Under the pieces are notes generated by a model. It ran no database searches. It worked only from the letters and a program-made list of their open reading frames with translations, and had not been told where the DNA came from. Source: Spirochaetia bacterium (lineage in GTDB: Bacteria > Spirochaetota > Spirochaetia > SZUA-6 > Bin103). From it: a stretch of 64,000 nt of DNA. Location of the stretch: contig CBDAOI010000004.1 of NCBI GenBank assembly GCA_965198005.1, positions 1,152,001 through 1,216,000 on the forward strand, given 5' to 3'. This document shows, one piece after another, positions 10,232-63,763 of this stretch. The stretch's first letter is position 1. The number at the start of each line of letters is the position of its first letter. The translations under genes were made by a program, and so were the position numbers.

Positions 10232-10327
10232 GTGATCAAGCCTATTCCCACTGCCGGCAGCGAATCAACCGGCGGAGGAGGCCGGGGTCTGCCGGCGGTG
10301 TAGCTCAAACGGCCAGCCGCGAGTTCG

Positions 10328-10390
10328 TGGGGTGGTGGTGGTGATCAACCTGCTCATCGACCTGGTCTATGGTGTCCTGGACCCCAAGCT
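10328..10390 (+). pseudogene. Tiny C-terminal remnant of a DppB/OppB permease
   Basis: VVVINLLIDLVYGVLDP is the canonical DppB C-terminus. Confidence 0.6.
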
Positions 10391-10430
10391 CTATTGCATG
10401 CACTTGCATGCATGCAGTAGTGTCGTTGGC

Positions 10431-10667
10431 ATGCGTACCACCATCGAACTACCGGACGATCTTCGCCAGCGAGTCGTGTCGGAGGCAGCCGCGCGTAGCC
10501 TCAGAGGCTACTCCCAGGTCATCGCGGACGCGCTACGCGCCTACTTCGACGGTCGACCGGATGATCGGCAGAGCGTGGTAGCCTGTGTTCGCGGCTCACT
10601 CAGTGCGCAAGCGGCAGCGGTGGAAAACCGCCGCTTGGTCGAGGTAAGGGCCAACTGGCGCACGTGA
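10431..10667 (+). CDS. Ribbon-helix-helix antitoxin; its PIN partner is truncated after 6 codons
   Basis: MRTTIELPDDL..; stop overlaps GTG ATC GTC CTG GAT ACC (MIVLDT); TGCATGCA palindromes at ~10396-10416. Confidence 0.7.
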   Translation: MRTTIELPDDLRQRVVSEAAARSLRGYSQVIADALRAYFDGRPDDRQSVVACVRGSLSAQAAAVENRRLVEVRANWRT

Positions 10668-10680
10668 TCGTCCTGGATAC

Positions 10681-10719
10681 CAGACCGAACAGACCGAACA
10701 GACCGAACAGACCGAACAG
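10681..10719. repeat. 9-bp tandem repeat (CAGACCGAA) x4
   Basis: Read directly; lies at the VapC-stub/IS110 junction. Confidence 0.9.
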
Positions 10720-45184: not shown

Positions 45185-45235
45185 TTGTCGAGTTGACAAA
45201 ATCAAGGGCGACCGGTATTATTGTCCAATCGACAA
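45185..45235 (+). promoter_or_regulatory. Two NrtR-type boxes (TTGTC-N5-GACAA) overlapping a TTGACA-17-TATTAT promoter
   Basis: Boxes at 45185-45199 and 45221-45235; -35 at 45193-45198, -10 at 45216-45221. Confidence 0.8.
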
Positions 45236-45253
45236 GAACGTGATGGAGGTGCC

Positions 45254-46159
45254 ATGAAAATTCCGAAGCTCGACACCGTCGCCGTCGGTTCGCCGATCAC
45301 GCGCCTGGGCGTGTCCTTCTTCCCGCTCTACTTGGCGGCCAACGACCTGCCGCCGATCGCCACCGGCGAAGCCTCGGGTCTTGTTGTCGACGAGCTCGAC
45401 GAGGCATCGGTGCAGACTCTGAGGGTGCGCAACCCCGGCGGCAGGCCGGTGCTCGTCGTCGAGGGCGAGCACTTCCTCGGCGGCAAGCAGAACCGCGCCC
45501 TGAACGCAACCGTCCTGGTGCCGGCCGGGGCCGAGCTGGAAATCCCGGTGTCCTGCCTGGAGCAGGGCCGCTGGGGTCGCCGCCAGGCTTACCGCCGCGA
45601 CGACGCGTTCGCGGCGGCCGCGGTACGCGCCGCACAGCATGCCGGCGTGGCCAAGTCCATGGGACGGAGGGCCTCTCGCGAGGGCGATCAGTCGGCGGTC
45701 TGGCACGCGGTCGACCAGATGCTGGACCGTGCCGAGGTGAACTCGTCCACCGCAGCGGCGGCCGACCTGCACCGGGAGGCGTACCGGCGCGAGCCGTCTC
45801 GGGCCACCGCGGTGGAGAAGCTCGCCGTCGCCGGCCCGCTCCCCGGCCAGTGCGGAATCGTCGTCACCCACGGGCGCTGGGTGCAGGCGATGGACCTGTT
45901 CGGTGCGCCGCACCTGCTCGCCGTTCACTGGCCCGCGCTGATCCGCTCGCACCTGCTCGAATCACCCGCCGTGGACGGCCGCCCGTCCCCCACGCGTGTG
46001 CTGGAACTCGTGCAACGCTTCTCGTCGGCGCCGGGTCAGGAGGTTCCCGGCGTGGGCCTCGGGGTCGAGCACCGCGTGGCCGACAAGCGACTCATCGGCC
46101 AGGCCCTGGCCCTCGACGGCGCGCTCGTGCACGCGGCGTTCTTCACCAGACAGCCGTGA
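45254..46159 (+). CDS. DUF6569 / ARPP-1-like protein
   Basis: VLVVEGEHFLGGKQNR..IPVSCLEQGRW, QSAVW; GGAGGT Shine-Dalgarno. Confidence 0.75.
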   Translation: MKIPKLDTVAVGSPITRLGVSFFPLYLAANDLPPIATGEASGLVVDELDEASVQTLRVRNPGGRPVLVVEGEHFLGGKQNRALNATVLVPAGAELEIPVSCLEQGRWGRRQAYRRDDAFAAAAVRAAQHAGVAKSMGRRASREGDQSAVWHAVDQMLDRAEVNSSTAAAADLHREAYRREPSRATAVEKLAVAGPLPGQCGIVVTHGRWVQAMDLFGAPHLLAVHWPALIRSHLLESPAVDGRPSPTRVLELVQRFSSAPGQEVPGVGLGVEHRVADKRLIGQALALDGALVHAAFFTRQP

Positions 46160-49200: not shown

Positions 49201-49890
49201 GTCAGTCGCGGCTTCGACTTTCAGGCAGCCGAACTTGCTGCCTCGCGAGCCCGGCTCACGGCGCAAGGTCGCGCCGGCGTCCCCGCTGCCCAGACGGAGC
49301 TGACCCGTGTAAAGGAACGCCAGCGCAACCTCACGGCCAGCCGCACGCGTCGCCTGGCAGAACTCCACGAAGAAGCGGACTCTGTCCGTACCGGTGACGT
49401 GGAGTTCCTGCTCCATGCCCTGATCGTTCCCGCAGACGATCCCAAGGAGATGGAGCGCTACAACGCCGAAGTGGAAGCCGTCGCCGTGCGGGTCGCGACC
49501 GCATATGAAGAAGCCTCCGGCGCCGAAGTAAAGGACGTGTCGCGACCGGCTCAGGCTCGGCAGGCTGGGCTCTCCGACTGGCCGGGCTTCGATTTGCTCT
49601 CCATCCGCGCCGCCAGCGAACGCCGCTGTATCGAGGTAAAAGGGCGCGCCGGGAGCGGCGGCGTCGAGGTGAGCGACAACGAATGGGCCAAAGCATGTAA
49701 CCTGCGCAACAAGTACTGGTTATACGTTGTCTACGGCTGCGCCACTCCCCAACCCCGACTGCTGCGCGTACACGACCCGTTCGGAAAGCTCCTCTTACGC
49801 AGCGGCCAGTCATTCGCATTCGTTGTTGCAGAACATGACATTATCGCTGTTTCCGAATCGACAGGAATCCAACAATATAAGCACATCTGA
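46273..49890 (+). CDS. XRE-HTH + SNF2 helicase + DUF3883 nuclease
   Basis: LTQGQLAELIGVSYATVNRWE; LLADDAGAGKT, DEAHK, TATPH, EQRMGRIHRYGQ; GFDLLS..IEVKGR. Confidence 0.9.
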   Translation: MRYPSVTSTGSPDDVAFRIKSLRGVRELTQGQLAELIGVSYATVNRWENEQSRPNQLAWRRIIELEDQATHRIAEQPASYDVREPPPSMDFAADPNAVAAVAEAHRLAYGHLFNPAFATETALIDPLPHQRIAVYEHMLRQAPLRFLLADDAGAGKTIMTGLYVREMLSRRLIRRVLIVPPAGLVGNWERELRSLFRLPFRIVGGADARFGNPFVGPDSDLVITSIDTLAGERMFSRLADPATSPYDLVVFDEAHKLSAHREPDYRVRKTDRYRLAEAIGGAGADSGRWSLHWSAQHLLLLTATPHMGKDDPYYFLWRLLLPDALSTSDAFDQFPQESRRRHFIRRTKEEMVRFDCTPLYPQRNCDTLSYELSQGPGSEQELYDATTDYIRYYYNRARVLNRSAARLAMSVFQRRLASSTYALMRSFERRQEKLQALINEIREGRLSEEQLMRAQRRFDDLDDEFETRTADEDSKPDGDGERHETFEDCALGATVAASLGELEAELLKVDSLLDMARSRVAGADESKFEKLREVLRDPRFGDHKLIVFTEHRDTAEFLVRRLEGLGFAGRVALIHGGLPYQERDRQVEFFRRSVAEGGASYLVATDAAGEGINLQFCWLMANYDIPWNPARLEQRMGRIHRYGQEHDPVIIVNLVAGGTREGRVLKTLLDKLEAIRRQLQSDKVFDVVGRLFEGVSVRDYLEQAVTEDGDGDTERFDGRLTEEQVLALEQRERVLYGEGGDVRRRVADLADEAEQEQFLRLLPGYVRCFVEKAAPLLDLRIEGDLEQTFSLAPRGAGAADALLPALETYAQPARNRLTVYKPGSREQVSWLHPGEPVFDSISASILGRFGDHALRGAVFVDPCATESYLFHLAVASVIQNGAVSDGSEHATAGRLLESRLIGLRQSSDGTVEESPVERLLLLRGAEGYAPSRVPLAGRAREMIRAAADYAGEAVAEQFADAHRQRLRAELPSRVEFVSRGFDFQAAELAASRARLTAQGRAGVPAAQTELTRVKERQRNLTASRTRRLAELHEEADSVRTGDVEFLLHALIVPADDPKEMERYNAEVEAVAVRVATAYEEASGAEVKDVSRPAQARQAGLSDWPGFDLLSIRAASERRCIEVKGRAGSGGVEVSDNEWAKACNLRNKYWLYVVYGCATPQPRLLRVHDPFGKLLLRSGQSFAFVVAEHDIIAVSESTGIQQYKHI

Positions 49891-49928
49891 CAAGACGAAT
49901 ACTGTAACAACACCAAGAGAGATACCAG

Positions 49929-52900
49929 ATGAATATAGATTTTCGAACGATCGTAGCACGGAGTGGAGGACAGCGTGACGCTTTCGAGGAGTTGTGTTGT
50001 CAACTCGCTCGTCGCACTATTTCAGACGGCATGCCGTGCACCCGACTTCGCGGCGCTGGTGGCGACGGAGGTGTTGAATTCATCGCAGACTTGCACAGTG
50101 GCCAGCGCATCGGATGGCAGGCGAAGTATGTTTTTAGTGTTGAGTCACTCCTCGACCAATCCAAATCGTCACTAGAAACTGCTGTGGAAGTTCATCCGAA
50201 CCTCACCAAGTACGTAATCTGTTTTCCTTTTGACTTAACAGGTCCGACACGACGCGGCGGACGAAGTGGTGTCGAGAAGATCGAAGATTGGAAACAGATT
50301 CAGGAACAGCGCTTGGTTGCAAACGGTCGTACTCTGAACATTGAGTTTTGGTCGGCATTCAAAATTCGTGATCTGCTGCATTCATACGATACCTCGGGGG
50401 GTATACGTGAATATTTCTTTAATCAGCGAGTTTTGACTCATCAATGGTTTTCGGACCACTTGAAGGATGCCTATCAGGACGCTGGTCCTCGATATACCCC
50501 TGACCTCAATGTTGAAACAAGTTTGTACAAATGGTTCGACGCTTTTGGACGTACGAGTACTTGGTCCGATATGTCCTACAAGAAAATAAGTACGTGTCGG
50601 AAGATGTGTAAACGTCTCGCGTCCGAGTCACGAGAGACTTCATCCGACACAGATTCACCCAAGTGGCCAGCGGCGGTACACGACGAACCTCCGACACTGT
50701 TGGAAGATATGGAAAGAACATGCCGTGATTCCGATCGCATCATTGCTACATATGACGCTCAGTTGTTTAGCTCTGTTACTACCAGCTTAGAGAGCCTTTT
50801 GGAGCGCCTCCGGAGTGTCGAGTCGGAACTTGCCATTGACCTAGAAACGAAGCATGGCGAAGGAATGGCAGATTCACCAGGATTTAGGCAGTTTATGGCA
50901 GAGTATATGGCGTCGTTTCCGACAGGTAATCTTGACACTATACGAGACGTTATTTCTTCATATAGTGATCTGTATGAATGGCTCTTATCTCCGAGTTGTG
51001 CATTGGCTTTTGACCGTGTCTTTGTCCTCTCTGGAGCCGCTGGATCTGGGAAGACGCATGGGGTGTGCGATGTCGCAAGAGCGAGGCACGTTAGAGGATT
51101 TCGGACGTGTGTGGTGTTCGGGCATCAATTCGGCGGGGAGCCAGATCCGTGGACACGACTACTGGAGACGCTCAATCTATCGGCAACACTGAGAGGAGAT
51201 GGTTTCCTAGATATGCTCGATGCTGCCGGCGCAGCTTCTGGTGCACACGTTCTTCTGTGTATCGACGCGATTAACGACACGCGTCCGTTGCGATACTGGC
51301 GTGATCGTCTATTGCCAATAGTACAATCAGCGGCACGGAGATTATTCGTGCGCGTGTGTTTCACATGTAGGTCGCCGTTCATATCAGTTTGTATTCCAAA
51401 AAGTAATGAGTTGAGAATAGTTGAGCATGAAGGTTTTACTGGTATAGAACATTATGCATGCCGCTCGTTCTTCGATTACTACAATCTTGATCCACCTGTA
51501 GTCCCCGTGCTTCATTCGGAGTTTTCGAATCCTCTTTATCTGCGTCTGGTGTGCGAAACAATGCGTTCGAGCGGTCGTCGTAGCCTGCCAACAGGTTGGC
51601 ATGGTATTGCTCCGGCGATACGCGGATTTCTTGATGAGAAAGAGCGCCAGTTTGCAGCAGATCACGATACTAGTCCAGGAAGCCAAATAATCAGGGGAAG
51701 TCTTGTTGCGATTATACGAAAGATCGCAAAGTCTGGTAGATCGGATCTGGCGTGGTCAGATGCGGAGAACGCGATCACGGAACGGCGATCGTTTGCGGCA
51801 AACTTACCGGTTCTGGAGTGGCTTGTTCGAAGTGATTTGTTGATCGAAGATGTTTCATCTCATTTGGAATCATTAGATGTCGAGCCTGTTGTAAGACCTG
51901 CATTCGAGCGGCTAGCGGATTTTCTTATTGCTCATGAGTTGTTGAAGGAGCACGGTGATAGCGATGTCAGAAATGAGGATCTGTCGTGTGGTTCTCTGTG
52001 CTCTCTTCAGTGCGGAGAACGCGACAATCGTTTGCGGCAACTTAGTGGACGGTGGCATTTGGAATCATTAGATGTCGAGCCTGTTGTAAGACCTGCATTC
52101 GAGCGGCTAGCGGATTTTCTTATTGCTCATGAGTTGTTGAAGGAGCACGGTGATAGCGATGTCAGAAATGAGGATCTGTCGTGTGGTTCTCTGTGCTCTC
52201 TTGTGACAAGCAAAGTGACGGTGGCAAAGAACAGTGGTGTTCTTTCGGCACTTTCGGTTGTGGGTCCAGAGTTTTTCCCAGGATTCGAGATAACGGGCCT
52301 TACTGACGATAAGAGGATTCGCAGATTGTTGTTGGAGATTTTCATAAAGACGATTCCTTCGAGAGATCCTGCGACGTTCGGAGTAACGTCAGAGACGTTG
52401 GTGCGGGAAGCACTTGGCACCCGTGACCTATCGTTCGAGACAATGGACTCAGTGCTTGCGTTGTCATGGCATGTGTCCGCTATTGACGCGTTTTGGCTCC
52501 ACGAGCTGTTGATGGAACAGAGCATGGCTAAACGTGATTCGTATTGGTGTGCATACTTACATGATTCATTTGAGAAAAGAGGAAGTGTGTACCGATTAGT
52601 TCAAGCTGCGTTCGAGTTGCCGTTAGATCAATTGGAGCAGGACGTGGCGGAACGATGGATAATCGCGTTATTGTGGTTTACCGCAGCGACAGATCGACGA
52701 GTGAAGGATCGCGCTACGCGGTCTATAGTCGCCGTTTTTTCGGCCAATCCTTGTCTAATAGAACGTACGATAATACGGATACTTCTTGAGTCTGATGACG
52801 ACGAAGTGCGCGAGCGAGCTCTCTTGAGCGGCTATGGCGCATTAATTAAGTCGAGAGACCCTGAACAATCCCTCAATATGGCGTCAGCGTTACTCAAGGC

Positions 52901-54365
52901 GATAAAAAGTGATCCAAAGTCCTTCCAGAACGCGATGATTCGGGATCACGTGAGATGCATCTTTGAGTTAAGCGCTCAATTAAAGTCTATCTCCCATGGT
53001 GTCAGCTACAAAGACGTAAGCATGACTGGATCCGAGTGGCCGTTGGTCATTCCGTCCAATGACGAGACTAAGATGTGGGAAAAACTGTTGCACTTTTGGC
53101 CTGACGAGTACAGGAGCGATTTTTTCAAATACTCGATGGGATGTCTTCGACCGTGGGAGCATTCAATTTCAAGATCCGACATGGCTAAGTGGATGATCAA
53201 GCGCATTGCAACAGATTTTCGTTATGTGTCTTCTGGTTGTGAACGCTATGACAGATACATGCTGGGTAAGTTTGGCGGAGGACGATCCAAGCCCAAGTGG
53301 GCGGAACGAATCGGAAAGAAATACCAGTGGCTCGCGATGTACCAGATCGCATCCCGACTGCATGATAATGTTGAACGCCAGAAGGAGCCATGGGATCATA
53401 CTCCTGATCTTCCCGCGCCGCCTCTAATATTGTTGGAAGAGCGTAAACTCGATCCTACTTTGCCGCGACAACTCATGGACCACAAAGATGTCTCTGATTC
53501 ATGGTGGGTGGCGACGACCGCTGATCTTGGCTTGAACCGTACACCATCGGATGAAGATTGGGTAAGAAGCAAGCAGGGAGTGCCGAACTTGAGTGACTTT
53601 CTTACACGCGTCGCTAGTGATTCACAGGAGTGGCTTCCCCTTTTGTCATTCCCCACGTGGGAAAAGCGACCGGAAGACGAAAGTATCTGGGAGACATCAT
53701 ATCGACAAGTGTGGATACATGTCAAGAGTTATTTGGTTTCTATACACGATGTAGAATCCGTGTACAAGGGTTTACGCGGACGTAATTTTTTTGGACAATG
53801 GTTGCCTAATGGAGCAGATTTACCTTATGGATTTGCGGGTGAATATCCATGGGCTACTTCATTCAAGAACGAGTTAGATAGCTGGTATGGTAGTGAAGAT
53901 TCGATCGATGGAATGCCGTGGAGATTGGAGCCATGCTGGAATCAGCTGGTTGTTGAGTGGGAGTATGACTCGTCGTTGGAGAAAAGCCATCATATGGCGG
54001 TGCCCGCGCGTCTATTCTTTTCATCTGATGATTTGTGGTGGGACGGAAAGGATGGTTACCGGGTTTTGGAAGGGAGGACTGTTTTTCGGGATCCATCACT
54101 TACCGATGGAGGTCCTACGTCTCTCATGGTCGATGCAAACGAACTCAACTTACGCCTCAATGATTTGAAACTCGGAATCATATGGACATTGCTTGGCGAG
54201 AAGTGGATTGTGGGTGGTCGCCACAGCACTAGGAGGTCGAGAAGGAGCTTTAGTCAGGTTGCGTATCGAAAGTGTGATGGCTCGACGGAAGTTGGAGAAC
54301 TTACTTTTTTCGATGACTTTGATGCTAGCACGGGACCGCGAGCGGTTGAGCCGATTAGAAAATAG
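49929..54365 (+). CDS. STAND-type NTPase with N-terminal Mrr-like nuclease (Avs/AVAST-like)
   Basis: FEELCCQ..DGGVE..GWQAKY; GAAGSGKT; LCIDAIND; NPLYL; ERIGKKYQW; distinctly lower GC. Confidence 0.7.
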   Translation: MNIDFRTIVARSGGQRDAFEELCCQLARRTISDGMPCTRLRGAGGDGGVEFIADLHSGQRIGWQAKYVFSVESLLDQSKSSLETAVEVHPNLTKYVICFPFDLTGPTRRGGRSGVEKIEDWKQIQEQRLVANGRTLNIEFWSAFKIRDLLHSYDTSGGIREYFFNQRVLTHQWFSDHLKDAYQDAGPRYTPDLNVETSLYKWFDAFGRTSTWSDMSYKKISTCRKMCKRLASESRETSSDTDSPKWPAAVHDEPPTLLEDMERTCRDSDRIIATYDAQLFSSVTTSLESLLERLRSVESELAIDLETKHGEGMADSPGFRQFMAEYMASFPTGNLDTIRDVISSYSDLYEWLLSPSCALAFDRVFVLSGAAGSGKTHGVCDVARARHVRGFRTCVVFGHQFGGEPDPWTRLLETLNLSATLRGDGFLDMLDAAGAASGAHVLLCIDAINDTRPLRYWRDRLLPIVQSAARRLFVRVCFTCRSPFISVCIPKSNELRIVEHEGFTGIEHYACRSFFDYYNLDPPVVPVLHSEFSNPLYLRLVCETMRSSGRRSLPTGWHGIAPAIRGFLDEKERQFAADHDTSPGSQIIRGSLVAIIRKIAKSGRSDLAWSDAENAITERRSFAANLPVLEWLVRSDLLIEDVSSHLESLDVEPVVRPAFERLADFLIAHELLKEHGDSDVRNEDLSCGSLCSLQCGERDNRLRQLSGRWHLESLDVEPVVRPAFERLADFLIAHELLKEHGDSDVRNEDLSCGSLCSLVTSKVTVAKNSGVLSALSVVGPEFFPGFEITGLTDDKRIRRLLLEIFIKTIPSRDPATFGVTSETLVREALGTRDLSFETMDSVLALSWHVSAIDAFWLHELLMEQSMAKRDSYWCAYLHDSFEKRGSVYRLVQAAFELPLDQLEQDVAERWIIALLWFTAATDRRVKDRATRSIVAVFSANPCLIERTIIRILLESDDDEVRERALLSGYGALIKSRDPEQSLNMASALLKAIKSDPKSFQNAMIRDHVRCIFELSAQLKSISHGVSYKDVSMTGSEWPLVIPSNDETKMWEKLLHFWPDEYRSDFFKYSMGCLRPWEHSISRSDMAKWMIKRIATDFRYVSSGCERYDRYMLGKFGGGRSKPKWAERIGKKYQWLAMYQIASRLHDNVERQKEPWDHTPDLPAPPLILLEERKLDPTLPRQLMDHKDVSDSWWVATTADLGLNRTPSDEDWVRSKQGVPNLSDFLTRVASDSQEWLPLLSFPTWEKRPEDESIWETSYRQVWIHVKSYLVSIHDVESVYKGLRGRNFFGQWLPNGADLPYGFAGEYPWATSFKNELDSWYGSEDSIDGMPWRLEPCWNQLVVEWEYDSSLEKSHHMAVPARLFFSSDDLWWDGKDGYRVLEGRTVFRDPSLTDGGPTSLMVDANELNLRLNDLKLGIIWTLLGEKWIVGGRHSTRRSRRSFSQVAYRKCDGSTEVGELTFFDDFDASTGPRAVEPIRK
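51861..52202. repeat. In-frame direct duplication (~147 bp, 195-bp period) in the NTPase gene
   Basis: HLESLDVEPVVRPAFERLADFLIAHELL..SLCSL occurs twice. Confidence 0.9.
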
Positions 54366-54398
54366 ATCGCTCATGGTAATGTGTGGTAGTACGCGAGC

Positions 54399-57300
54399 AT
54401 GAGTGATAACGACAAGCGTCTCATTGAGGTTGGGTTTCCGGTGAAGCAGGTGTCGCTCGATTCGGTGCACGAGAAGAACGTGCGGCATGGGCATGTTTCG
54501 ACGCTGCACATCTGGCCGGCGAGGCGGCCGTTGGCGGCGTGTCGCGCGGCGCTGATTGGGACGCTGCTCGCGGCTCCGGGTGATGCGGAACGACGCACGG
54601 CGATTCTGGAGCGGATGGCCGGTCGGGTGGTCAAGAAGGTGGAGCGCAAGCGGGTGAACGGCCGCTTGGTGGAGAAGGTGAAGGAGGAGACCGCCGGCGG
54701 TATTCTGCACTGGGGCCGGGAGAGCGACGAGGATCTGCAGTGGTTTCGGGAGGAGATTCGCAGGGCCTATGGCGGGCGGGCACCACGCGTGCTCGACCCG
54801 TTTGCGGGAGGGGGCGCCGTACCTCTGGAAGCACTGCGGCTGGGCTGCGACGTGACGGCTATCGACATCAATCCGGTGGCGTGGTTCATTCTCAAGTGCA
54901 CGCTCGAATACCCGCAAAGACTCGCTGGCGAGAAGCACGCGCTTCCGGATTCTGCGTTGCGCGACGCGGAGTTCATGGCCGCGTTCTTCAAGGCGCGTGG
55001 TTTCAAGGGAGCAATGTTGCGCACGTTGCTCCAGCGGCTAGGGCACGGCAGCGGTAGCGAAGTTCAGCTCGACCTGATCAGCGTCGACGATCCGCTGCTC
55101 GATGCGGACCTTGCGTGGCATATGCGTGCGTGGGGGCGATGGGTGCTTGCTCGTGCGCGCAAGGATCTGGCGTCTCATTACCCCACCCATGCCGAGTTCG
55201 TACCTCTGAGTGGTGGCAGCGAGTACGAGGCGGGACCGAGGCGGCTGCTTGTAGAGGTCGATGAGAGCGGAAACCCACAGATTGACTCACTGAATGTCGA
55301 GTACGACACCGCCTACCTGAACGATCCCCGCAACCCTCGATGGGTGGCGAAGCCTACGGTCGCGTATCTGCATGCGCGGACGGTTGCCTGCAAGCAGTGT
55401 CGCGCCATGCTTCCGCTCCTCAAGACGCGCTGGCTGTGCAGGAAGGAGCGCAAGCGCGTGTTGCTGACGATGGAGCGCGACGCCGCGGAGACCAATGTGG
55501 CATTCGGCGTGCAGACGGACGTGCCGCAGGCCGGCGGCAATGCGGCACAGCGACGGGAACACGACAAGCGCATAGGGGCCGGTACGATGTCACGCACCGG
55601 CGCGACCTGTCCGTGGTGCCATGCCATCATGACCATGGAAGATATCCGCCTGGAAGGACGCGCCGGCAGGTTGGGTACGGTGATGACGGCGGTGGTAGTC
55701 GACGGCCCTCGGGGCAAGGAGTACCGTCTGCCTACCGAGCACGAGCGTGTAGCTGCGGAAGTAACCGACGAGCAGCTTCAAGCCATGTTTGCGCATATCC
55801 CCTTTGGTTTGCCGGAAGAACCGCTAGCGAGCAAGGAGGCTCTCGGGTTTCGCGTCCCGCTGTACGGATTCGACACATGGAGAAAGCTGTTTACCAACCG
55901 CCAACTCTTGGCGCTGGGCGAGTTCACCCGAGCGCTGCGGTGCTTGCCGCAGGAACTGCGCGACTATCCGCCCGCGTGGCGGGAGTCGATCGTCGCGATG
56001 TGCGCACCGATCATCAGTCGCATGGCCGACCGAGGGAGCACGTTGGCAACTTGGACAAGCAATGCTGAACAGACCAGTCACACATTTGCGAGATTCGCGT
56101 TGCCCATGACCTGGGACTTCTCGGAGTACGCTCCGCTCTCGGACACTACGGGCGGCTTCCTGCAATCGGTCGACTGGGTGTTCAAGGTGTGCCGGCACCT
56201 CCAGAGCAGCGTCCAAGCTGCCTGCAGCGGAACCAGCGTACTTGGCTCGGCAACCTCCCGCGACGTTGCCGACATCGACCTCGTAGTGACCGACCCGCCC
56301 TACTACGACGCGATCCCCTACTCCGACCTGATGGATTTCTTTTATGTTTGGCTGAGGCGGTCGCTGGCCGGTCTGTCCGCCGAGATCGACGCGGCATTCT
56401 CCAGTGTTCTTGGCCCCAAGTGGGATCACCAGGCCGACGACGGTGAGTTGATCGACGACGCAAGTCGGTTCGAGGGTGACAAGGAGCGATCCAAGCGCAA
56501 CTACGAGGACGGCATGGCACGCGCGTTCCGCTCGTGCCACGTGGCGTTGCGGCCGGAGGGGCGGCTGGTGGTCGTGTTCGCCAACAAGCAGCCCGACGCC
56601 TGGGAGACACTGGTCGGCGCTTTGATCCGGGCCGGATTCGTGGTTGACGGCTCCTGGCCGCTTCAGACGGAACGAAGCAGCCGCAGCCGCGCGATGTCAT
56701 CCGCCGCCTTGTCATCGTCGGTATGGATCGTCTGCAAGAAGCGCGCCGCCGGTCGTCACGGGTGGGACAGCAGCGTCTTGGACGAGATGAGGGAGAACAT
56801 CACCGAGAAGCTACGCGACTTCTGGGACGCGGGGATTCGCGGGCCGGACTTCGTGTGGGCGGCGACCGGACCGGCGCTGGAGGCGTTCAGCAAGTACCCG
56901 GTGGTCAAGAAGGCGAACGCCCCGAACCAGCTCATGACCGTCTCCGAGTTCCTGCGCGAGGTGCGGCGGATGGTGGTCGATTTCGTCGTCGGACGCGTCC
57001 TCACCCACGACGAAGCCAAGGAAGCGGCAACCGGTCTTGATGACGTGACTACCTATTACTTGCTGCATCGTAACGACTTCGGCATGGGTGAGGCGCCGGT
57101 GGGGGGCTGCATTCTCTATGCGCTGTCGTGCAACCTCTCCGACTCTGCGCTGGTCAACCAGCACGACCTGCTGGCGCAGTCCGGACGTGGGAACGCGGAG
57201 GAGTCCGAGGACGACGATCCGGCAGCGGACGAGGAACGGTCTGAGGGCGGTGGCGCCAAGGTCAAGCTCAAGCCGTGGAGCCGAAGGCAGGGACGCAACC

Positions 57301-57575
57301 TCGGCCTGGAAGCGGCGGGCGGGCGCCCGCCACCCCTCATCGACCAGGTGCACCGGTTGATGCACCTGTGGCGAGCCGGGGACCAAGTCAAGGTTGACGA
57401 CTACCTCGACACCCGTGGCCTCCCGCGCAACGCCCTGTTCCACCGCATCCTGCAAGCGCTCATCGAGCTGGCCGAGGGTGACTCCGAGGAGCGCTCTCTG
57501 CTGGAAGCCCTGAGTAACCGCGCGGCTGACCGTGGCGGTATCGGCTATCGTCAAGGCGAGCTGATTCCGAGATGA
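54399..57575 (+). CDS. DUF1156 adenine-specific DNA methyltransferase
   Basis: LHIWPARRPL, DPFAGGGAVP, Zn-finger CKQC/CPWC, TDPPYYD. Confidence 0.9.
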   Translation: MSDNDKRLIEVGFPVKQVSLDSVHEKNVRHGHVSTLHIWPARRPLAACRAALIGTLLAAPGDAERRTAILERMAGRVVKKVERKRVNGRLVEKVKEETAGGILHWGRESDEDLQWFREEIRRAYGGRAPRVLDPFAGGGAVPLEALRLGCDVTAIDINPVAWFILKCTLEYPQRLAGEKHALPDSALRDAEFMAAFFKARGFKGAMLRTLLQRLGHGSGSEVQLDLISVDDPLLDADLAWHMRAWGRWVLARARKDLASHYPTHAEFVPLSGGSEYEAGPRRLLVEVDESGNPQIDSLNVEYDTAYLNDPRNPRWVAKPTVAYLHARTVACKQCRAMLPLLKTRWLCRKERKRVLLTMERDAAETNVAFGVQTDVPQAGGNAAQRREHDKRIGAGTMSRTGATCPWCHAIMTMEDIRLEGRAGRLGTVMTAVVVDGPRGKEYRLPTEHERVAAEVTDEQLQAMFAHIPFGLPEEPLASKEALGFRVPLYGFDTWRKLFTNRQLLALGEFTRALRCLPQELRDYPPAWRESIVAMCAPIISRMADRGSTLATWTSNAEQTSHTFARFALPMTWDFSEYAPLSDTTGGFLQSVDWVFKVCRHLQSSVQAACSGTSVLGSATSRDVADIDLVVTDPPYYDAIPYSDLMDFFYVWLRRSLAGLSAEIDAAFSSVLGPKWDHQADDGELIDDASRFEGDKERSKRNYEDGMARAFRSCHVALRPEGRLVVVFANKQPDAWETLVGALIRAGFVVDGSWPLQTERSSRSRAMSSAALSSSVWIVCKKRAAGRHGWDSSVLDEMRENITEKLRDFWDAGIRGPDFVWAATGPALEAFSKYPVVKKANAPNQLMTVSEFLREVRRMVVDFVVGRVLTHDEAKEAATGLDDVTTYYLLHRNDFGMGEAPVGGCILYALSCNLSDSALVNQHDLLAQSGRGNAEESEDDDPAADEERSEGGGAKVKLKPWSRRQGRNLGLEAAGGRPPPLIDQVHRLMHLWRAGDQVKVDDYLDTRGLPRNALFHRILQALIELAEGDSEERSLLEALSNRAADRGGIGYRQGELIPR

Positions 57576-57688
57576 CCACGTGCACAGCTTCTGGGACGGC
57601 GCCCCTCGTCCACCTTTTCACATCTGGCCGTTTCTGACATGATAGAGGTTATCCGTGACGTAACGCGTATCGTAGGATGCGGTGGGCG

Positions 57689-57973
57689 ATGATCGCCACC
57701 TATCGCGACAACCGAACGCGGGATTTCGCGTCGGGAAAGTGGGTCAGTGCGTTCTCCGGCTTCGAACATGCGGCGAGGCTAAAGATCGACCGACTGGAAG
57801 TGGCAACGTCAATCATGGATCTGGCGGCATTGCCGGGTAACCGTTTTGAATCCCTGACGGGGGATCGAAAAGGGCAGTACAGCATTCGCATCAACGATCA
57901 GTGGCGCATCTGCTTCGAGTGGACGAAACGGAGCTCAGGGCCGACCAACGTCGAGATCGCAGACTATCACTAG
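57689..57973 (+). CDS. higB: HigB (RelE-family) toxin
   Basis: PGNRFESLTGDRKGQYSIRINDQWRICFEW..DYH. Confidence 0.93.
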   Translation: MIATYRDNRTRDFASGKWVSAFSGFEHAARLKIDRLEVATSIMDLAALPGNRFESLTGDRKGQYSIRINDQWRICFEWTKRSSGPTNVEIADYH

Positions 57974-57986
57974 CAACGGGAGGGCC

Positions 57987-58292
57987 GTGATGGGAATACC
58001 AGCTATCCATGCGGGAGAACATCTCGCCGAAGAACTGAAGGCGCTCGACATGAGTGCCAGCACGCTCGCAAGACAAGTGAGCGTGCCTACGAAGCGAATC
58101 ACCGAGATTCTCAATGGGAGCCGTGCAATCACTGGGGACACGGCGCTGAGGTTGGCCCACTTTTTCGGCACCAGCGCGGAGTTCTGGCTCAACCTCCAGA
58201 AGCTCTACGAGCTCCGGCTTGCAGAGGAAACGGTGGGAGACGATATCGACTCCCTGCCGACACTCAAGAGCTACGACGCGGTTCGCACGTGA
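57987..58292 (+). CDS. higA: HigA antitoxin
   Basis: HAGEHL..RAITGDTALRLAHFFGTSAEFWLNLQ. Confidence 0.93.
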   Translation: MMGIPAIHAGEHLAEELKALDMSASTLARQVSVPTKRITEILNGSRAITGDTALRLAHFFGTSAEFWLNLQKLYELRLAEETVGDDIDSLPTLKSYDAVRT

Positions 58293-61200
58293 GTCCCTGG
58301 CATGAGGTCGTGCAAGTGCGCGACGATCTGAAGAGTGGCGAGCTGTCGCTGGCGGTGTTTGCCGCCGATCTGTACGACGTGGTGATGCAGAAGGGGCAGA
58401 GGCCGGTGTACGAGCAACCGGCTCAGTTTTTTGCCCTCACCTACCCGACCCTCAATCTGCGCGAACTGGTCAAGGACGTGGCCCTTCGCTTGGCCGGGCA
58501 GAGCGACAAGGCGTACCGTAAGCTGGCCGTCAATTACGGCGGCGGCAAGACGCACACACTTATCGCGCTCCGGCATCTGGTACATGCCCCCCACGAGTTG
58601 CCCGACCTGCCGGCGGTTCGTGAGTTCGAGGCGCACATCGGGTTCAAGGCTCCACGGGCGCGCGTCGCGGCGCTGTGCTTCGACAAGATCGACATTGAAA
58701 AAGGTGTGGAGATACCCGGCCCGGACGGGAAGTTGCGGATGCTCAGGTACCCATGGAGCGTGCTGGCCTGGCAGCTTGCCGGGTCGGACGGGCTGCGGCT
58801 GCTCCACGCCGCCGGCCAGGACGCCGAACGAGAGACGCCGCCGGCCGAACCCCTCCTGGTGAAGCTGCTGGCGAAGCCGCAAGCCGACGATCTCTCCACG
58901 CTGGTGCTGCTCGACGAGGTGTTGACGTACCTCCGCGTGCAGGTCGAAGTGGATCCGAACTGGCGCGGCAGGTCGATCAGCTTCTTCCAGTACCTCACGC
59001 AGGCGGTGGTCAAGGTGGACCGTTGCGCCATGGTGGCGTCGCTGCTCGCCTCCGATCAGCGGAGGCATGACGCGTTGGGCAACGAGCTGTTGCGCGACGT
59101 GTCCGAAGTGTTCGGCCGGCAGATGGAGGAGGACGCAAGTCCGGTGAGCAAGGAGGACGTGGCGCAGGTGTTGCGGCGCCGGTTCTTCACGCCCGAGTCG
59201 ATACGCGATCAGGGCGTATTCCGGCCACACGTGGCGGCGACGGTCGGCAGCATCGCGGATCTCGACGAGCAGACTGCCAAGGAGCGGGTGGCCGCCGAGC
59301 AGCGCTATCTCGACAGTTATCCCTTTCACCCGGAACTCACCGAGATCTTCTACACGCGGTGGACCCAGCTCGACGGATTCCAGCGCACGCGCGGCATCCT
59401 GCGCACGTTCGCCATCGCCCTGCGCGATGCGGAGCGATGGGACACCAGCCCTCTGATCGGCCCGAACGTGTTTCTGAACGAGCCGGGCACGAACGACTTG
59501 GCCGAAGCGGCAAGCGAGCTGGCCTCGTTCGCCAGTGTCGATACTGACGGCGGTGCGCACCAGCAGTGGCGGCCGATCCTCGAAGGCGAGCTGGCCAAGG
59601 CACGTGCGATTCAGTCCGACGCCGTGCGTCTCCGCCACCGGGAGTTGGAACAGGCGGTGGTAGCGGTGTTTCTGAGCTGTCAGCCGATCGGGCAGAAAGC
59701 GTTGACGCCGGAGCTGATGGTACTGCTCGGGGCAGCGAAGCCCGACCGGATAGAGCTTGAGACAGGGTTGCAGCGCTGGACCGAGGTGTCGTGGTTTCTG
59801 GATGAGGCGGAGGTCGCGACGCGGGGGGATGACTCCGGCGCAACCGGGGAACTGCCCAAGACATGGCGCCTGGGTAATCGTCCCAACCTGCGGCAGATGC
59901 ACGACGACGCCTGCCGCAACCGGGTGCCGCCGACGCTGGTCGAGTCGCAACTCGTCGACGCCATCGAAAGACAGCGAACCCTCACCTCCGGAGCCAGCGC
60001 CGCCGGTGCAAGAGTACACAACCTGCCGGCACGCCCGCGCGACGTCGCCGATGACGGGGCTTTTCACTACGTCGTGCTTGGCCCGCGGGCGGCCTCGGAC
60101 CCGGGCAAGCCGAGCGCGGAGGCGCGCAAGGTCATAGACCAGACGACGACCCCGGATCGACCCCGGGTGTACCGCAACGCAGTCGTCCTCGCGGTACCCT
60201 CGCGGGATGGTCTCGAGGCTTTGCGGACACGAGTACGCGACTACCTGGGTTGGGAGGAAGTTCGCGCCCAGTTGATAGACCAGCCGATCGACCCGTTGCG
60301 CGAGCAGATGCTGGCCGCCGAAACGGCCGCGGCCAGGAAGCGGGTGCCGGATGCGGTCAGGTCAGCCTACTGCATGGTGGTGACGGTCAGCGAGAGCGAT
60401 GCCATCCACGCCTTCCGGGTCGTGGTCAGCGACCAACCGTTGTTCACGACGATCAAGGCCGATCGTCGATCGCGCATTCAGGAGACTGCCATCAGTTCGG
60501 ACGCCATGCTGCCGGGCGGGCCCTACGACCTGTGGCGCGAGGACGAGCAGTCGCGGCGGGTCAAGGATCTGGTGGGGGCGTTCGCACAGTTCCCCAAGCT
60601 TCCGAAGATGCTGCGGACCAGAGAGATACTCGATACCGTGCTGGATGGCGTTCGAAACGGGATCTGGGTGGCTCAGCTTGCCCGCCCGGATCGAACGGTC
60701 AGGACGTTCTGGCGTATTGGCATCGACGAGCCGGCGCTCGATGACGCCGGTCTGGAACTGGTGCTACCCGAAGCCGCAAAGCTGAGCGGTCTCGAATCCG
60801 ACCTTCTCCGGCAAGGCAACCTGCCGGGACTTTGGTCGTCCGACGCCATTTCCGTCCAGGACGTGTACGACTACTTTGCCGGCGGTCGCGAGGTTTCTCT
60901 TCCTCGCGAAGGCTACGAGGAGACCCTGCGTGTCCCCGCATGCGAACCGGCTCACGTCGAGGCCGCGGTGCTGCAGGCAGTGGAGCAGGGTCTGCTGTGG
61001 CTGACCAGCGGCCCGGCGTCAATCCTGAATGAGCCGGTGCCGACCGGCGTGCTCAGCGCTGCCGCGACCCTGCGGCCGCCCCCGGCGCGGATGCCGGTAG
61101 ACGAAATGATGGCCGAATCGATCCCCGATGCGTGGCGTGACGGGACGACCAATGCGCTCGCCGTTGCCACGGCTCTTTCGACCAAACACGGCGCTACCCT

Positions 61201-61588
61201 GCCCTGGGCGGCGGTGCGTGCGGTGATTGAGGACGCGATCCGCGCCCACTGGGTCGAGCTCTCCGCCGACAGCGCCGCGTGGCCTTGTGATCTTGCCGGT
61301 GCCCGGCACGTGATCCTGAGAGTACCGACCGACCAAGAGTCGCGTGGCGGTAGTCGCCACTCTCGCCAGACACGGCCCGGGCTGCTCACAGCCGAGGCAG
61401 TCCTGGAAGCCAACGGCATCCAGGACCTCGCGGATCAGATTCCCGAAATCGCCAAGGCCGCTGTCGGCAACGACCTCAAGTTCAACATCCGCGTCGAGTT
61501 CGGCGGCAAGGACTCGCCCCCGGCCGAGGCGGTGGCGAGAATCAACGATCTGCTGTCCGACGTGTCGGACGCGCTGCGACTCCGGTGA
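58289..61588 (+). CDS. DUF499 AAA+ ATPase
   Basis: PWHEVVQVR..FAADL, NYGGGKTH, LLDE, SYPFHPE, FQRTRGILR. Confidence 0.9.
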   Translation: MSPWHEVVQVRDDLKSGELSLAVFAADLYDVVMQKGQRPVYEQPAQFFALTYPTLNLRELVKDVALRLAGQSDKAYRKLAVNYGGGKTHTLIALRHLVHAPHELPDLPAVREFEAHIGFKAPRARVAALCFDKIDIEKGVEIPGPDGKLRMLRYPWSVLAWQLAGSDGLRLLHAAGQDAERETPPAEPLLVKLLAKPQADDLSTLVLLDEVLTYLRVQVEVDPNWRGRSISFFQYLTQAVVKVDRCAMVASLLASDQRRHDALGNELLRDVSEVFGRQMEEDASPVSKEDVAQVLRRRFFTPESIRDQGVFRPHVAATVGSIADLDEQTAKERVAAEQRYLDSYPFHPELTEIFYTRWTQLDGFQRTRGILRTFAIALRDAERWDTSPLIGPNVFLNEPGTNDLAEAASELASFASVDTDGGAHQQWRPILEGELAKARAIQSDAVRLRHRELEQAVVAVFLSCQPIGQKALTPELMVLLGAAKPDRIELETGLQRWTEVSWFLDEAEVATRGDDSGATGELPKTWRLGNRPNLRQMHDDACRNRVPPTLVESQLVDAIERQRTLTSGASAAGARVHNLPARPRDVADDGAFHYVVLGPRAASDPGKPSAEARKVIDQTTTPDRPRVYRNAVVLAVPSRDGLEALRTRVRDYLGWEEVRAQLIDQPIDPLREQMLAAETAAARKRVPDAVRSAYCMVVTVSESDAIHAFRVVVSDQPLFTTIKADRRSRIQETAISSDAMLPGGPYDLWREDEQSRRVKDLVGAFAQFPKLPKMLRTREILDTVLDGVRNGIWVAQLARPDRTVRTFWRIGIDEPALDDAGLELVLPEAAKLSGLESDLLRQGNLPGLWSSDAISVQDVYDYFAGGREVSLPREGYEETLRVPACEPAHVEAAVLQAVEQGLLWLTSGPASILNEPVPTGVLSAAATLRPPPARMPVDEMMAESIPDAWRDGTTNALAVATALSTKHGATLPWAAVRAVIEDAIRAHWVELSADSAAWPCDLAGARHVILRVPTDQESRGGSRHSRQTRPGLLTAEAVLEANGIQDLADQIPEIAKAAVGNDLKFNIRVEFGGKDSPPAEAVARINDLLSDVSDALRLR

Positions 61589-61806
61589 GTCTCTACGCAG
61601 CTACTGCAGGTGGGTCAGCCCGGCGGGGCAACCCGGCGCCGCCGGCGGCACCGTTCGATGTTGCCGAGCCATCGCAAGAACGATACGATTACATGACGAG
61701 TTGCACGGAACGGTAAGTAGTCCATTATGATGGTCACGTCTGGAATTCTGGTTCTGGAAACTTGTCGTCTACAGGATGAACGAGTCGGTAAGACGAGTCT
61801 CGCATA

Positions 61807-62235
61807 ATGGCACCAGATATCCCTGATCAAGAACCGGACAACCGAGGAGTCGGCCAAGAACCCGCGCAGGAGTCGAAGGGGCGCCCCTCATTCTCCCGCC
61901 TGCTCAGGCCGTTGACCGACGATGAGATGTCAGCGTCGGGTGTGCAGAAGCTGCTCGTGGCGGAGATCGATCGGCTGGAAGAGGAGAATAGAGGACTCAA
62001 GGCAATCAGCAGGGAGTTCGGTGCTTCTCAGCGAAGGATCGGCATCCTGGAAGAGAAGCTCAAGAGCCACACAGCTCTCGATGTGATCTCCGGAGGTTGC
62101 ATAACGGTAGGTGGAGTGGCACTCGGTGCCATTCCAGCGCTGTCGTCTGTACAACCTTATGGTTTGGTCGCGGCAGGGTTCGGCATAACGCTGATCGCGG
62201 TTGGTTTCGTATCACAGGTGGTGAAACGGAGATGA
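61807..62235 (+). CDS. Hypothetical coiled-coil protein with two C-terminal TM helices
   Basis: EIDRLEEENRGLK coiled coil; two hydrophobic segments. Confidence 0.75.
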   Translation: MAPDIPDQEPDNRGVGQEPAQESKGRPSFSRLLRPLTDDEMSASGVQKLLVAEIDRLEEENRGLKAISREFGASQRRIGILEEKLKSHTALDVISGGCITVGGVALGAIPALSSVQPYGLVAAGFGITLIAVGFVSQVVKRR

Positions 62236-62621
62236 AGGTCAGGGTAGACAGGATTCGGGATCCGGGCGTTCTCGATAAGGAACGGCTGGTGTTGAGAGTA
62301 CTCGCAACGACTGACATCGGTGACTACGTATTGCTCCGCACCAAGTATGATGCGGAGACCGTATTGGCAGGGAACTGTGATGCGTTCTGGTTTCCTTTCC
62401 GGGCCGTGTACAAGGACGACTTGGTGGTCGTCTACACGAAACCCGGAGTCATGAAGGAGAAAGTCTTGGAGGATGGCGTCAAGGCCCGCTTTTTTTACTG
62501 GGGTCTTGCGTATCCGATCTGGGATGCAGATGACCGGGGCGCGGTAATCCTTTACGCCCCTAACTGGGAAGACAAGCACCAGCACCTGATGCGCCAACCG
62601 TCGGCAAGCGCTACGACGTAG
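62232..62621 (+). CDS. Hypothetical beta-rich protein, possibly lamin-tail-domain-like
   Basis: ATGA overlap; KERLVLRV..FWFP..VVVYTKPG..FYWGL..IW..AVIL. Confidence 0.6.
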   Translation: MKVRVDRIRDPGVLDKERLVLRVLATTDIGDYVLLRTKYDAETVLAGNCDAFWFPFRAVYKDDLVVVYTKPGVMKEKVLEDGVKARFFYWGLAYPIWDADDRGAVILYAPNWEDKHQHLMRQPSASATT

Positions 62622-62638
62622 CCGAGAACGGCCGCCAC

Positions 62639-62743
62639 GCCCGGCAGCTTGGCGTGCGCCGGATGCAGGTACAGGGACTCGTGGGCTTGCATGATGCGTT
62701 GCGGTTCGCCGTGCCGGGTCGCGCAGCAGCAGGTCCATCGAGC
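62639..62743 (-). pseudogene. Uma2 paralogue fragment
   Basis: Similar to 43137-43242. Confidence 0.7.
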
Positions 62744-62751
62744 CGACCCGT

Positions 62752-63763
62752 CATGGCTGGGACAGCAGCGTCCTGGATGAGATGCACGAGAACATCACCG
62801 AGAAGCTGCGCGACTTCTGGGACGCGGGGATACGCGGGCCGGACTTCGTGTGGGCGGCAACCGGCCCGGCGCTCGAAGCGTTCAGCAAGTACCCGGCGGT
62901 CAAGAAGGCGAACGCCCGGAACCAGCTCATGACCGTCTCGGAGTTCCTGCGCGAGGTGCGGCGGATGGTGGTCGACTTCGTCGTCGGACGTGTGCTGACC
63001 CGCGACGACGGCAAGGAAGCGGCACCCGGCCTCGACGACGTAACCACCTATTACTTGCTGCATCGTAACGACTTCGGCATGGGTGAGGCGCCGGTGGGGG
63101 GCTGCATCCTCTATGCGCTGTCTTGCAACCTCTCCGACACGGCGCTGGTCAACCAGCACGACCTACTGGCGCAGTCGGGACGCGGGGCTGCGGAAGAGTC
63201 CGAGGACGATGATCCGGTAGGGGACAAGGAACGGTCTCAGGGCGGTGGCGCTAAGGTCAAGCTCAAGCCGTGGAGCCGGAGGCGGGGCCGCAACCTCGGC
63301 GTGGAAGGGCCGGGCGGGCGGCCACCATCGCTCATCGACCAAGTGCACCGGTTGATGCACCTGTGGCGAGCCGGAGACCACGTCAAGGTCGACGCCGAAC
63401 GAGAGACGCCGCCGGCCGAACCCCTCCTGGTGGAGTTGCTGGCGAAGCCGCAAGCCGACGATCTCTCCACGCTGGTGCTGCTCGACGAGGTGTTGACGTA
63501 CCTCCGCGTGCAGGTCGAAGTGGATCCGAGCTGGCGCGGCAGGTCGATCAGCTTCTTCCAGTACCGCCGAGGCTGTTCTGGAGGCCAACGGCATCCAGGA
63601 CCTGGCAGACCAGATTCCTGAAATCGCCAAGGCCGCCGTCGGCAACGACCTGAAGTTCAACGTGCGCGTCGAGTTCGGCGGCGAGGAGCCTCCCTCAGCC
63701 GAGGCCGTCGAAAAAATCAACGAGCTACTGGCCGAGGTGCCGGGTATGCCGCAACTTCAATGA
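62752..63763 (+). pseudogene. Deletion-collapsed diverged duplicate of the DUF1156 3' end and DUF499 pieces
   Basis: Blocks match ~56755-57398, ~58820-58993 and ~61391-61588. Confidence 0.88.

Follow-up and report, generated by a model that had tools for sequence, protein, structure and literature searches.

A coupled gene pair encoding a coiled-coil membrane protein and a lamin-tail-fold partner at the edge of a spirochaetal defence island: a candidate anti-phage module

What is the role of two small, overlapping genes that stand at the edge of a bacterial defence island and match no named protein family? The question is raised by a 64,000-nucleotide (nt) stretch of the genome of a Spirochaetia bacterium (assembly GCA_965198005.1, contig CBDAOI010000004.1, positions 1,152,001 to 1,216,000), called the window hereafter, in which two open reading frames (ORFs), here named genes A and B, follow the DUF499 gene of an Hma system. 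Our answer, which we favour and hold tentatively, is that A and B form a self-contained, horizontally mobile conflict module, most likely an anti-phage one of the abortive-infection or toxin-antidote type, in which A would be the effector and B its controller. The pair is a good candidate for a new anti-phage system, and the module carries no name at present.

A sequence-only reading of this DNA had described two small, lower-GC (guanine + cytosine) ORFs with an ATGA overlap directly after the DUF499 gene, bracketed by a duplicate of the defence operon, and had proposed them as a two-gene defence system of a sensor and a pore-forming effector that could not be matched to any named one. Coordinates, GC windows, and the HmaC match agree with this layout; the GC content is 0.547-0.585 across the pair (400-nt windows, 61600 to 62599) as against 0.63-0.70 in hmaC and 0.62-0.67 downstream. 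The bracketing also holds, with an intact hmaB-higBA-hmaC run to the left of the pair and a patchwork of remnants to its right, and so does the lack of a named counterpart, since neither PADLOC 2.0, Pfam, NCBIfam, nor PHROGs returned a match. The start of B requires some care. In the ORF list, its reading frame extends upstream to a TTG at 62097 (174 amino acids, aa), and we place the start at the ATG at 62232 because M1 is invariant in 16/16 alignment rows.

Both genes are real: they have conserved relatives across many phyla, far beyond chance. Word-based searches found 16 clusters for B and 15 for A, and an exhaustive search with the B profile reached 1,062 representative clusters at E<=0.001, with 659 (clusters at 50% identity) at E<=1e-10 and 81 at E<=1e-30. 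Among the best 150 B clusters, nearly all are stand-alone proteins of about 120 aa, and one longer match is a frameshift fusion of A and B. Narrower searches gave no match, namely tblastn with family member P0002 against 72,556 plasmids and megablast with the pair of locus L022 against complete Escherichia coli genomes.

The conservation of the pair as a unit, which the earlier reading had named as the first thing to check, is strict. We fetched 64 loci through B (15 reference genomes from many phyla, 6 viral contigs, and 43 metagenome contigs), and a relative of A lies immediately upstream of B in 54 of them; where at least 450 nt of upstream DNA is available, the figure is 51 of 53 loci. The A-B junction is an ATGA in 45 of the 54, drawn from other genomes and metagenomes. 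Two exceptions should be mentioned: in L061, a divergent 154-aa ORF with the same coiled-coil and two-helix layout precedes B, and in L044 (1026-1593), only a 64-aa membrane ORF stands in front of it. Searches that started from A instead found one viral contig and one genome among 400 others of the phylum (L081 and L082), and B lies downstream in both. Over 56 loci, the identities of A and B co-vary (r 0.70; 0 of 999 permutations as high), B being the better conserved of the two with a mean pairwise identity of 0.40 versus 0.31 for A. Near-identical loci aside, no third gene recurs beside the pair. A and B are, therefore, a conserved, translationally coupled, self-contained pair.

The clearest view of this unit comes from integrons. 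In L082 (G245:C1:1233000-1252999), a locus from the same class as the window, 20 kb of DNA contain 14 copies of an 18-nt attC core, all on the same strand, where 0 are expected, and the pair exactly occupies one interval between two cores, from 9740 to 10718; the bounding sites form strong single-strand hairpins with consensus-like ends (z -5.25 and -4.85). L003, from a Zoogloeaceae metagenome-assembled genome, carries an integron integrase (TIGR02249; score 390.5 bits, cut-off 265). After it come, in order, a single ORF, an attC-like hairpin (z -2.7), the pair, a second, stronger hairpin (z -6.3), and a further ORF with a hairpin of its own, which puts the pair two cassettes from the integrase. 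Here, attC-like denotes an assignment made from the hairpin fold and from ends that fit the attC consensus. Two unrelated integrons, then, treat A and B as a single cassette. The cassette status belongs to these two relatives and not to the window, where neither end of the pair has an attC-like hairpin (z -0.5 and +0.6).

The array of L082 deserves a description of its own. It is sedentary-integron-like, and its cassettes include a type II restriction-modification (RM) system, ParE, a PD-T4-6/Stk2-like kinase, HicB, a PFIN fertility-inhibition gene, and a Cass2 regulator, together with two copies of the candidate system PDC-M45 (DuOB with two DUF488 genes).

A gene pair that travels as one cassette invites a plain toxin-antitoxin explanation, and we consider this unlikely, though not negligible. 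A would be a membrane toxin and B its antidote, and the two would stabilise integron arrays, prophages, and islands by addiction, with no phage-specific trigger. Toxin-antitoxin cassettes are described as stabilising integron arrays in a recent preprint (bioRxiv 10.1101/2024.07.02.601686), and the neighbours of the pair in L082 and L036 include ParE, HicB, and RES-Xre; the tight coupling and co-divergence of A and B point the same way. On the other hand, B lacks a DNA-binding domain through which it could autoregulate, no toxin-antitoxin family matches either protein, and the pair also sits in dedicated defence loci such as the P2 hotspot and RM loci (below). The line between an addiction reading and an abortive-infection reading is blurred.

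The two proteins themselves should be considered next. Protein A begins with a disordered N-terminal head, which bears a PDQEP-type motif; a long helix follows, and a glycine-rich hairpin of two membrane helices, ending in KRR, forms the C-terminus. Hydropathy analysis marks two segments above 1.4 (approximately 92-112 and 119-139), conserved in all four relatives tested, and the AlphaFold2 model (predicted local distance difference test, pLDDT, 70.8) leaves residues 1-37 unstructured and places helices at 44-107 and 118-141 with a short turn between them, so that both methods agree with the two C-terminal membrane helices proposed earlier. In the model, the long helix passes from a cytoplasmic coiled coil directly into the first membrane helix. 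An alignment of 15 relatives shows V46, K48, L49, L50, L81, G102, G107, G126, L129, and G133 to be invariant, that is, a VQKLL motif opens the long helix and four invariant glycines lie inside the hairpin. The basic KRR end suggests that both termini of A face the cytoplasm.

No curated-level family in Pfam, PADLOC, NCBIfam, or PHROGs covers A. Weak rows to Leu_zip, Trimer_CC, LeoBC (E 0.006), and a tape-measure PHROG were set aside, as all fall on the coiled coil. Searches of PDB sequences with the profiles of A and B returned chance-level rows only, and an Atlas search with the A homologue P0024 found unnamed clusters and sub-threshold helical look-alikes only.

Protein B is soluble and all-beta, with no signal peptide and no hydrophobic window by hydropathy, and its AlphaFold2 model (pLDDT 84.6) has eight strands. 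Foldseek against PDB gave the immunoglobulin (Ig)-like tails of lamin A/C, B1, and B2 as the best rows, those of lamin A/C and B1 having E values of 7e-4 to 3e-3, template-modelling (TM) scores of 0.45-0.60, and a probability of 1.00 in all but one. An exhaustive VIA-align search put lamin B1 (7dtg_A) on top with Z 8.9, a root-mean-square deviation of 3.0, and 93 aligned residues, the runner-up reaching Z 5.1, and the Atlas model of the B homologue P0017 aligns with bacterial lamin tail domain (LTD) clusters at TM 0.66-0.68 by query. The three methods agree on a lamin Ig-like beta-sandwich.

Sequence comparison leaves B outside the family with which it shares this fold. It belongs to no curated-level family in Pfam, NCBIfam, PADLOC, or PHROGs, and no Pfam row appears up to E 1; it has no match to Pfam LTD (PF00932) at the gathering score, and a search of its own genome for that family returned two other places, with B absent. 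When 130 B-family sequences were aligned with hhalign to 23 LTDs, the probability was 0.46% and E was 0.13, the LTD set being taxonomically narrow (it was taken from the genomes of relatives and holds 23 of 29 extracted domains, six with stop codons having been dropped). The lamin-tail-like character claimed earlier is thus borne out at the level of structure, where lamin tails rank first, and the modelled B is best described as a lamin-tail fold without demonstrable membership of Pfam LTD. Bacterial LTDs usually occur in secreted multidomain proteins; B shares their fold but is stand-alone and cytoplasmic. Among 130 B sequences, E17 is invariant, and G12, R18, G30, W53, D63, Y68, K70, G72, F87, Y89, W97, and W112 are conserved in at least 90%.

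If A and B were a conflict module, one might expect to see defence genes or mobile elements around them, and the earlier reading had named association with defence genes as a test. We scanned approximately 5 kb around the pair at 33 loci (the window, L002-L016, 13 loci of viral or metagenomic origin, and 4 from genomes), with the near-duplicates L019, L023, and L048 excluded. A non-generic PADLOC defence match lies near the pair in 11 of the 33, which is a descriptive count and not a measured enrichment. These are Hma and Avs2 in the window; a RAMA/HSDR_N nuclease-like gene (PDC-S14) within a prophage in L004; PD-T4-6-like kinases in L013 and L014; a cyclase and two-transmembrane (2TM) effector of the cyclic-oligonucleotide-based anti-phage signalling system (CBASS), together with AbiV, in L022; ApaLI RM in L042; a TrlF/Ppl-like ATPase and a type IIG enzyme on either side of the pair in L054; a caspase-like gene in L064; a type II methylase and HsdM on either side, with HsdS nearby, in L076; an adjoining GmrSD-like gene in L077; and RM and a PD-T4-6-like kinase in the same array in L082, where PDC-M45 adjoins the pair. 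Pfam alone adds conflict genes in L002 (RHS), L012 (Fic), and L036 (RES-Xre and a nuclease-like gene).

Mobile elements are found beside the pair as well: the integron integrase of L003, integrases and relaxases in L004, L006, L014, and L016, P2-like prophages in L015 and L022, and Mu-like phages in L020 and L021. Generic PADLOC rows were left out of the count, namely a DnaG-like match and mad8 in L006, a RecD-like relaxase helicase and mad8 on a coupling protein in L016, and capH on a helix-turn-helix (HTH) repressor and PtuA on Sel1 repeats in L004. In L008 (Loktanella gaetbuli, approximately 8400-11250), ribosomal protein genes flank the pair and a 2OG-Fe(II) oxygenase gene, with L24 on one side and L16, S3, L22, S19, and L2 on the other, and the arrangement looks like an insertion in the ribosomal protein cluster.

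The most telling locus is L022. There, the pair sits between the portal gene gpQ and the replication gene gpA of a P2-like phage, with the 2TM effector three genes away. This interval is the P2 anti-phage hotspot described by Rousset et al. (PMC9122126). A later study reports that six of eight randomly picked P4 satellites whose defence loci hold nothing but uncharacterised genes gave protection against phages (PMC13586616).

The link to Hma, in which the earlier reading saw the context of the pair, is local. DUF499 and DUF1156 genes occur beside the pair only in the window and in the congener G006 (L080), and in 0 of 32 other scanned loci. A role as a fourth Hma gene was rejected on this ground; Hma (HmaA helicase, HmaB DUF1156 methylase, and HmaC DUF499 ATPase) is the immediate neighbour in these two genomes, and the pair has come to lie beside it as independent cargo. 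The expected association with defence genes therefore stands in part: relatives are often found in defence or mobile contexts, but about a third of the loci have housekeeping neighbours only.

Within the bacterial lineage of the window, the pair is patchily distributed and often decayed. B was found in 8 of 11 genomes of the window's genus, its own included (7 of 10 other species), and in none of the 30 genomes that represent the order's other genera; A was found in 2 of 401 sampled genomes of the phylum, again with its own included. The GC content at third codon positions (GC3) of the pair is low relative to the host genomes. G000, G009, and G010 have both genes whole. In G001, G003, G005, and G006, an intact B stands beside an A that is truncated, frameshifted, or lost; only G008 has the reverse, with B split by a frameshift and A intact, and G013 retains only a remnant of A with a stop codon. 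The location also changes. G006 has the HmaC-pair arrangement of the window, but a 492-nt deletion has taken out the spacer together with codons 1-102 of A; G001, G005, G009, and partly G003 have the pair at another, mutually syntenic site, and G010 has it inside a type I RM locus. Short membrane ORFs or remnants of A directly precede an intact B in L044 (64 codons), L080/G006 (approximately 40), and L075/G001 (approximately 46), and these may be decay products or a minimal variant.

Not all of this favours a conflict module with A as effector, and some of the observations in this and the following three paragraphs tell against it to varying degrees. Besides the descriptive nature of the defence count, one of them is that B remains under purifying selection where A is truncated or lost, the ratio of nonsynonymous to synonymous substitution rates (dN/dS) being 0.14 for G001 versus G005 and 0.16 for the window versus G006. 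A role of B as a pure sensor for A is disfavoured because B is kept in this way without full-length A; its persistence fits an antidote, or an independent role of B, better. Orphan antitoxins behave alike, which is a further point for the addiction explanation. The intact A beside a frameshifted B in G008 counts against that explanation in turn and, unless it is an assembly error, opposes constitutive lethality of A in general. One should also keep in mind that the asymmetry of decay is biased, since the loci were mostly found through B, and that each lineage may have lost A only recently.

Retention of B without A also suits a different arrangement, superinfection exclusion or interference, in which B would be the active component that binds a part of the phage or mobile element and A would do no more than tether or concentrate B at the inner membrane. 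We regard this as decidedly unlikely. It would account for the better conservation of B, with its conserved aromatic and charged residues, for the short membrane ORFs or remnants that are all that precede B in L044, G006, and G001, and for the place of the pair in prophage accessory slots (L015, L021, and L022). It does not sit well with the conservation of the coiled-coil part of A across phyla, nor with the presence of full-length A in nearly all informative loci, and tblastn with four B-family members against 50,697 cultured phage records gave no match.

In L021, a Mu-like viral contig, a virion-morphogenesis gene (Phage_tail_S family) precedes the pair (7540-8375) and the Mu I protease gene follows it, which places the pair in the accessory slot before the protease. 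The slot would point to an accessory function that serves the phage or element, e.g., anti-defence or lysis timing, as would the occurrence of the pair on six viral contigs. The accessory slot of Pseudomonas Mu-like phages is described as holding anti-CRISPR genes (PMC4378225). We find such a function very improbable because most loci are chromosomal without phage genes, the pair is also found inside RM loci and integron arrays, no lysozyme, amidase, transglycosylase, or endolysin family lies beside it in the scanned loci, and the search of cultured phage records was negative. For the same want of lysin neighbours, and because A has a cytoplasmic N-terminal part of 90 residues, the idea that A is a phage holin was rejected.

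Finally, about 10 of the 33 scanned loci have housekeeping neighbours only (e.g., L008, L010, L011, L026, L034, L050, L055, L060, and L079), and three or four congeners share one syntenic site. These would be the marks of a housekeeping or envelope-related pair whose mobile contexts are incidental. A housekeeping role is, however, very unlikely because of the rarity of the pair in the phylum and in other genera of the order, its turnover (frequent decay, with a GC3 below that of its hosts), and its status as an integron cassette.

We therefore return to the module in which A acts and B controls, and its working can be pictured as follows. A would be anchored in the inner membrane by its C-terminal glycine-rich hairpin, with the coiled-coil stalk and the disordered head in the cytoplasm, and B, a cytoplasmic lamin-fold beta-sandwich, would be produced in fixed proportion to A through the ATGA coupling. 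B may bind the cytoplasmic part of A and hold it inactive until an infection cue removes or alters B; the hairpins of A would then be free to assemble and damage the membrane, and the infected cell would cease to support the phage. We infer this course of events from the architecture (hairpins rich in glycine, the coiled-coil stalk, and a type of beta-sandwich able to bind coiled coils), from the coupling of the genes, and from the pattern of decay. The data establish the two genes, their architecture and fold, their strict pairing, their movement as one unit, and their surroundings; binding of B to A, toxicity or pore formation by A, the triggering cue, and any effect on phages belong to the proposal.

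A bolder version can be drawn from the same parts. In it, the pair would be a new and widespread anti-phage system of single-cassette size, B would be both sensor and antidote for a tail-anchored, coiled-coil pore protein A, and would protect alone after the loss of A, and B would be the first lamin-tail-fold protein in prokaryotic immunity. We consider this doubtful, and far less likely still is the notion that the coupled pair represents a split prokaryotic counterpart of the rod-plus-tail arrangement of lamins.

How does the pair compare with systems that have names? Its nearest functional analogues are RexAB of phage lambda and Sucellos (SclA/SclB), which are likewise two-gene modules of prophages or integrons, with one small membrane protein and one cytosolic partner. 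RexB is a four-helix membrane protein that forms a channel, whereas A has two C-terminal membrane helices after a coiled coil; B, a lamin-fold all-beta sandwich of 129 aa, is unlike RexA, and the gene order puts the membrane protein first. Neither protein shows a RexA- or RexB-like Pfam row up to E 1 or a PADLOC match to such a protein, the comparison being one of sequence families and of modelled architecture. As for Sucellos, the preprint describes it as RexAB-like, with two genes in one integron cassette that are both required and that kill infected cells (bioRxiv 10.1101/2024.07.02.601686).

For structure, the nearest analogue of the hairpin of A is the class of 2TM effectors of CBASS, Pycsar, and retrons (SLATT and Cap15-type), and that of B is the lamin tail domain. 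The 2TM effectors are also small proteins with a helical hairpin thought to damage the membrane on activation. They differ in that the hairpin of A is C-terminal and in that the pair has no cyclase or nucleotide-sensing domain, the partner being a beta-sandwich; A matches neither a PADLOC effector model nor a SLATT family in Pfam, and no gene for a signal generator recurs beside the pair. Kiwa is a two-gene defence system too, in which the membrane protein also comes first and the soluble partner second. KwaA, however, has four membrane helices and KwaB carries DUF4868; neither A nor B has a Kiwa match in PADLOC, and the families are unrelated. Of the defining traits of the known classes compared, then, the pair shows only the fold of B and, in relatives, the integron-cassette status. 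A search of full-text literature yielded no report that connects the lamin tail domain with anti-phage defence and none of the A-B architecture, the supplementary candidate lists of preprints being outside that search.

It remains to describe the surroundings of the pair in the window (Table 1). The pair lies at the edge of a defence island because Hma and Avs2 genes stand on its left and remnants, a transposase fragment, and an oligopeptide transporter follow on its right; farther upstream are transposases and an ARPP-1 gene. The head-to-tail hmaB/hmaC remnants are the scar of recombination or deletion between two Hma cassettes.

Table 1. Features at and around genes A and B, in window coordinates.
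Feature	Coordinates	Strand	Remarks
Gene A	61807..62235	+	142-aa ORF; family alignment of 15 relatives
Gene B	62232..62621	+	129-aa ORF
ATGA overlap of A stop and B start	62232..62235	+	translational coupling
Spacer between hmaC and A, 218 nt	61589..61806	+	possible site of a promoter and 5' end belonging to the pair
Right junction of the pair, then 108-nt repeat fragment	62638..62745	.	89.8% like 43136-43242
Patchwork of remnants of a second hmaB/hmaC copy	62749..63743	+	context, outside the module
Remnant of hmaB	62749-63394		90.7% identity to 56754-57399
Remnant of hmaC	63391-63565		98.3% identity to 58820-58994
Remnant of hmaC	63563-63743		84.5% identity to 61388-61568
Defence island left of the pair	46273..61588	+	
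SNF2 helicase with HTH and NOV_C	46273-49890	+	left island
Avs2	49929-54365	+	left island; low GC
HmaB/DUF1156 methylase	54399-57575	+	left island
HigB	57677-57973	+	left island
HigA	57987-58292	+	left island
HmaC/DUF499	58289-61588	+	immediately left of the pair's spacer

Some features of the island itself are worth recording. The Hma operon is broken twice, by the low-GC (0.46-0.52) Avs2 gene between the helicase gene and hmaB and by HigB/HigA between hmaB and hmaC; in the congener G006, the hmaB-hmaC gap is filled by approximately 2.2 kb of different DNA with a HigA-like gene. The Avs2 gene contains an exact 147-nt direct repeat (51861-52007 and 52056-52202, start-to-start distance 195), which repeats the corresponding protein stretch and may be a real duplication or an assembly artefact. 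The ARPP-1 domain gene (45221-46159, E 1.3e-62) lies just 5' of the Hma helicase gene and near NTP_transf_2 and Uma2-like genes, and these three are likely to be further conflict genes of the island.

Evidence on expression comes from metatranscriptomic contigs of four libraries in two studies, which match the pair at approximately 99%. One contig of 1,048 nt spans 61707-62638 and bridges the A/B junction. The left ends of the contigs fall at 61707, 61707, 61722, and 61734, with no loose end listed there, a weak hint of an own start. The contigs would fit a single transcript of both genes that begins in the spacer, with the proviso that DNA may be present in RNA libraries. Neither a sigma-70-like promoter site nor a + strand terminator emerged from consensus scans around the pair. 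The bins at 61456-61669 are uncovered in four RNA-library runs, which should not be read as an absence of transcription, and the hmaC pieces in these runs are only about 90% identical and may stem from other organisms.

At the right junction, contigs of both studies continue past 62638 with the same non-window sequence, so that the DNA to the right of the pair appears to differ between strains. The summed depth of the RNA-library contigs peaks, by a wide margin, in the bin of the 108-nt repeat, whose other copy lies inside a Uma2-like ORF; it reaches 376 there, and many loose ends fall at 62638-62641. On account of this very high depth and these ends, the repeat belongs to a multi-copy or highly expressed element.

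What would the pair mean for the biology of these bacteria? If its role in defence is true, it would be a compact system of approximately 0.8 kb built from two unnamed protein families, and it would provide the first role of the lamin-tail fold in bacterial immunity, as well as a clean case of a two-gene defence unit that moves as one integron cassette and also enters the P2 hotspot and RM loci. Being so small, the pair lends itself to cloning and testing, and the genomes that keep B without A give direct access to the question of whether modules of this kind work as toxin-antidote pairs. Even if the pair were an addiction module only, A would still represent a new family of membrane toxins.

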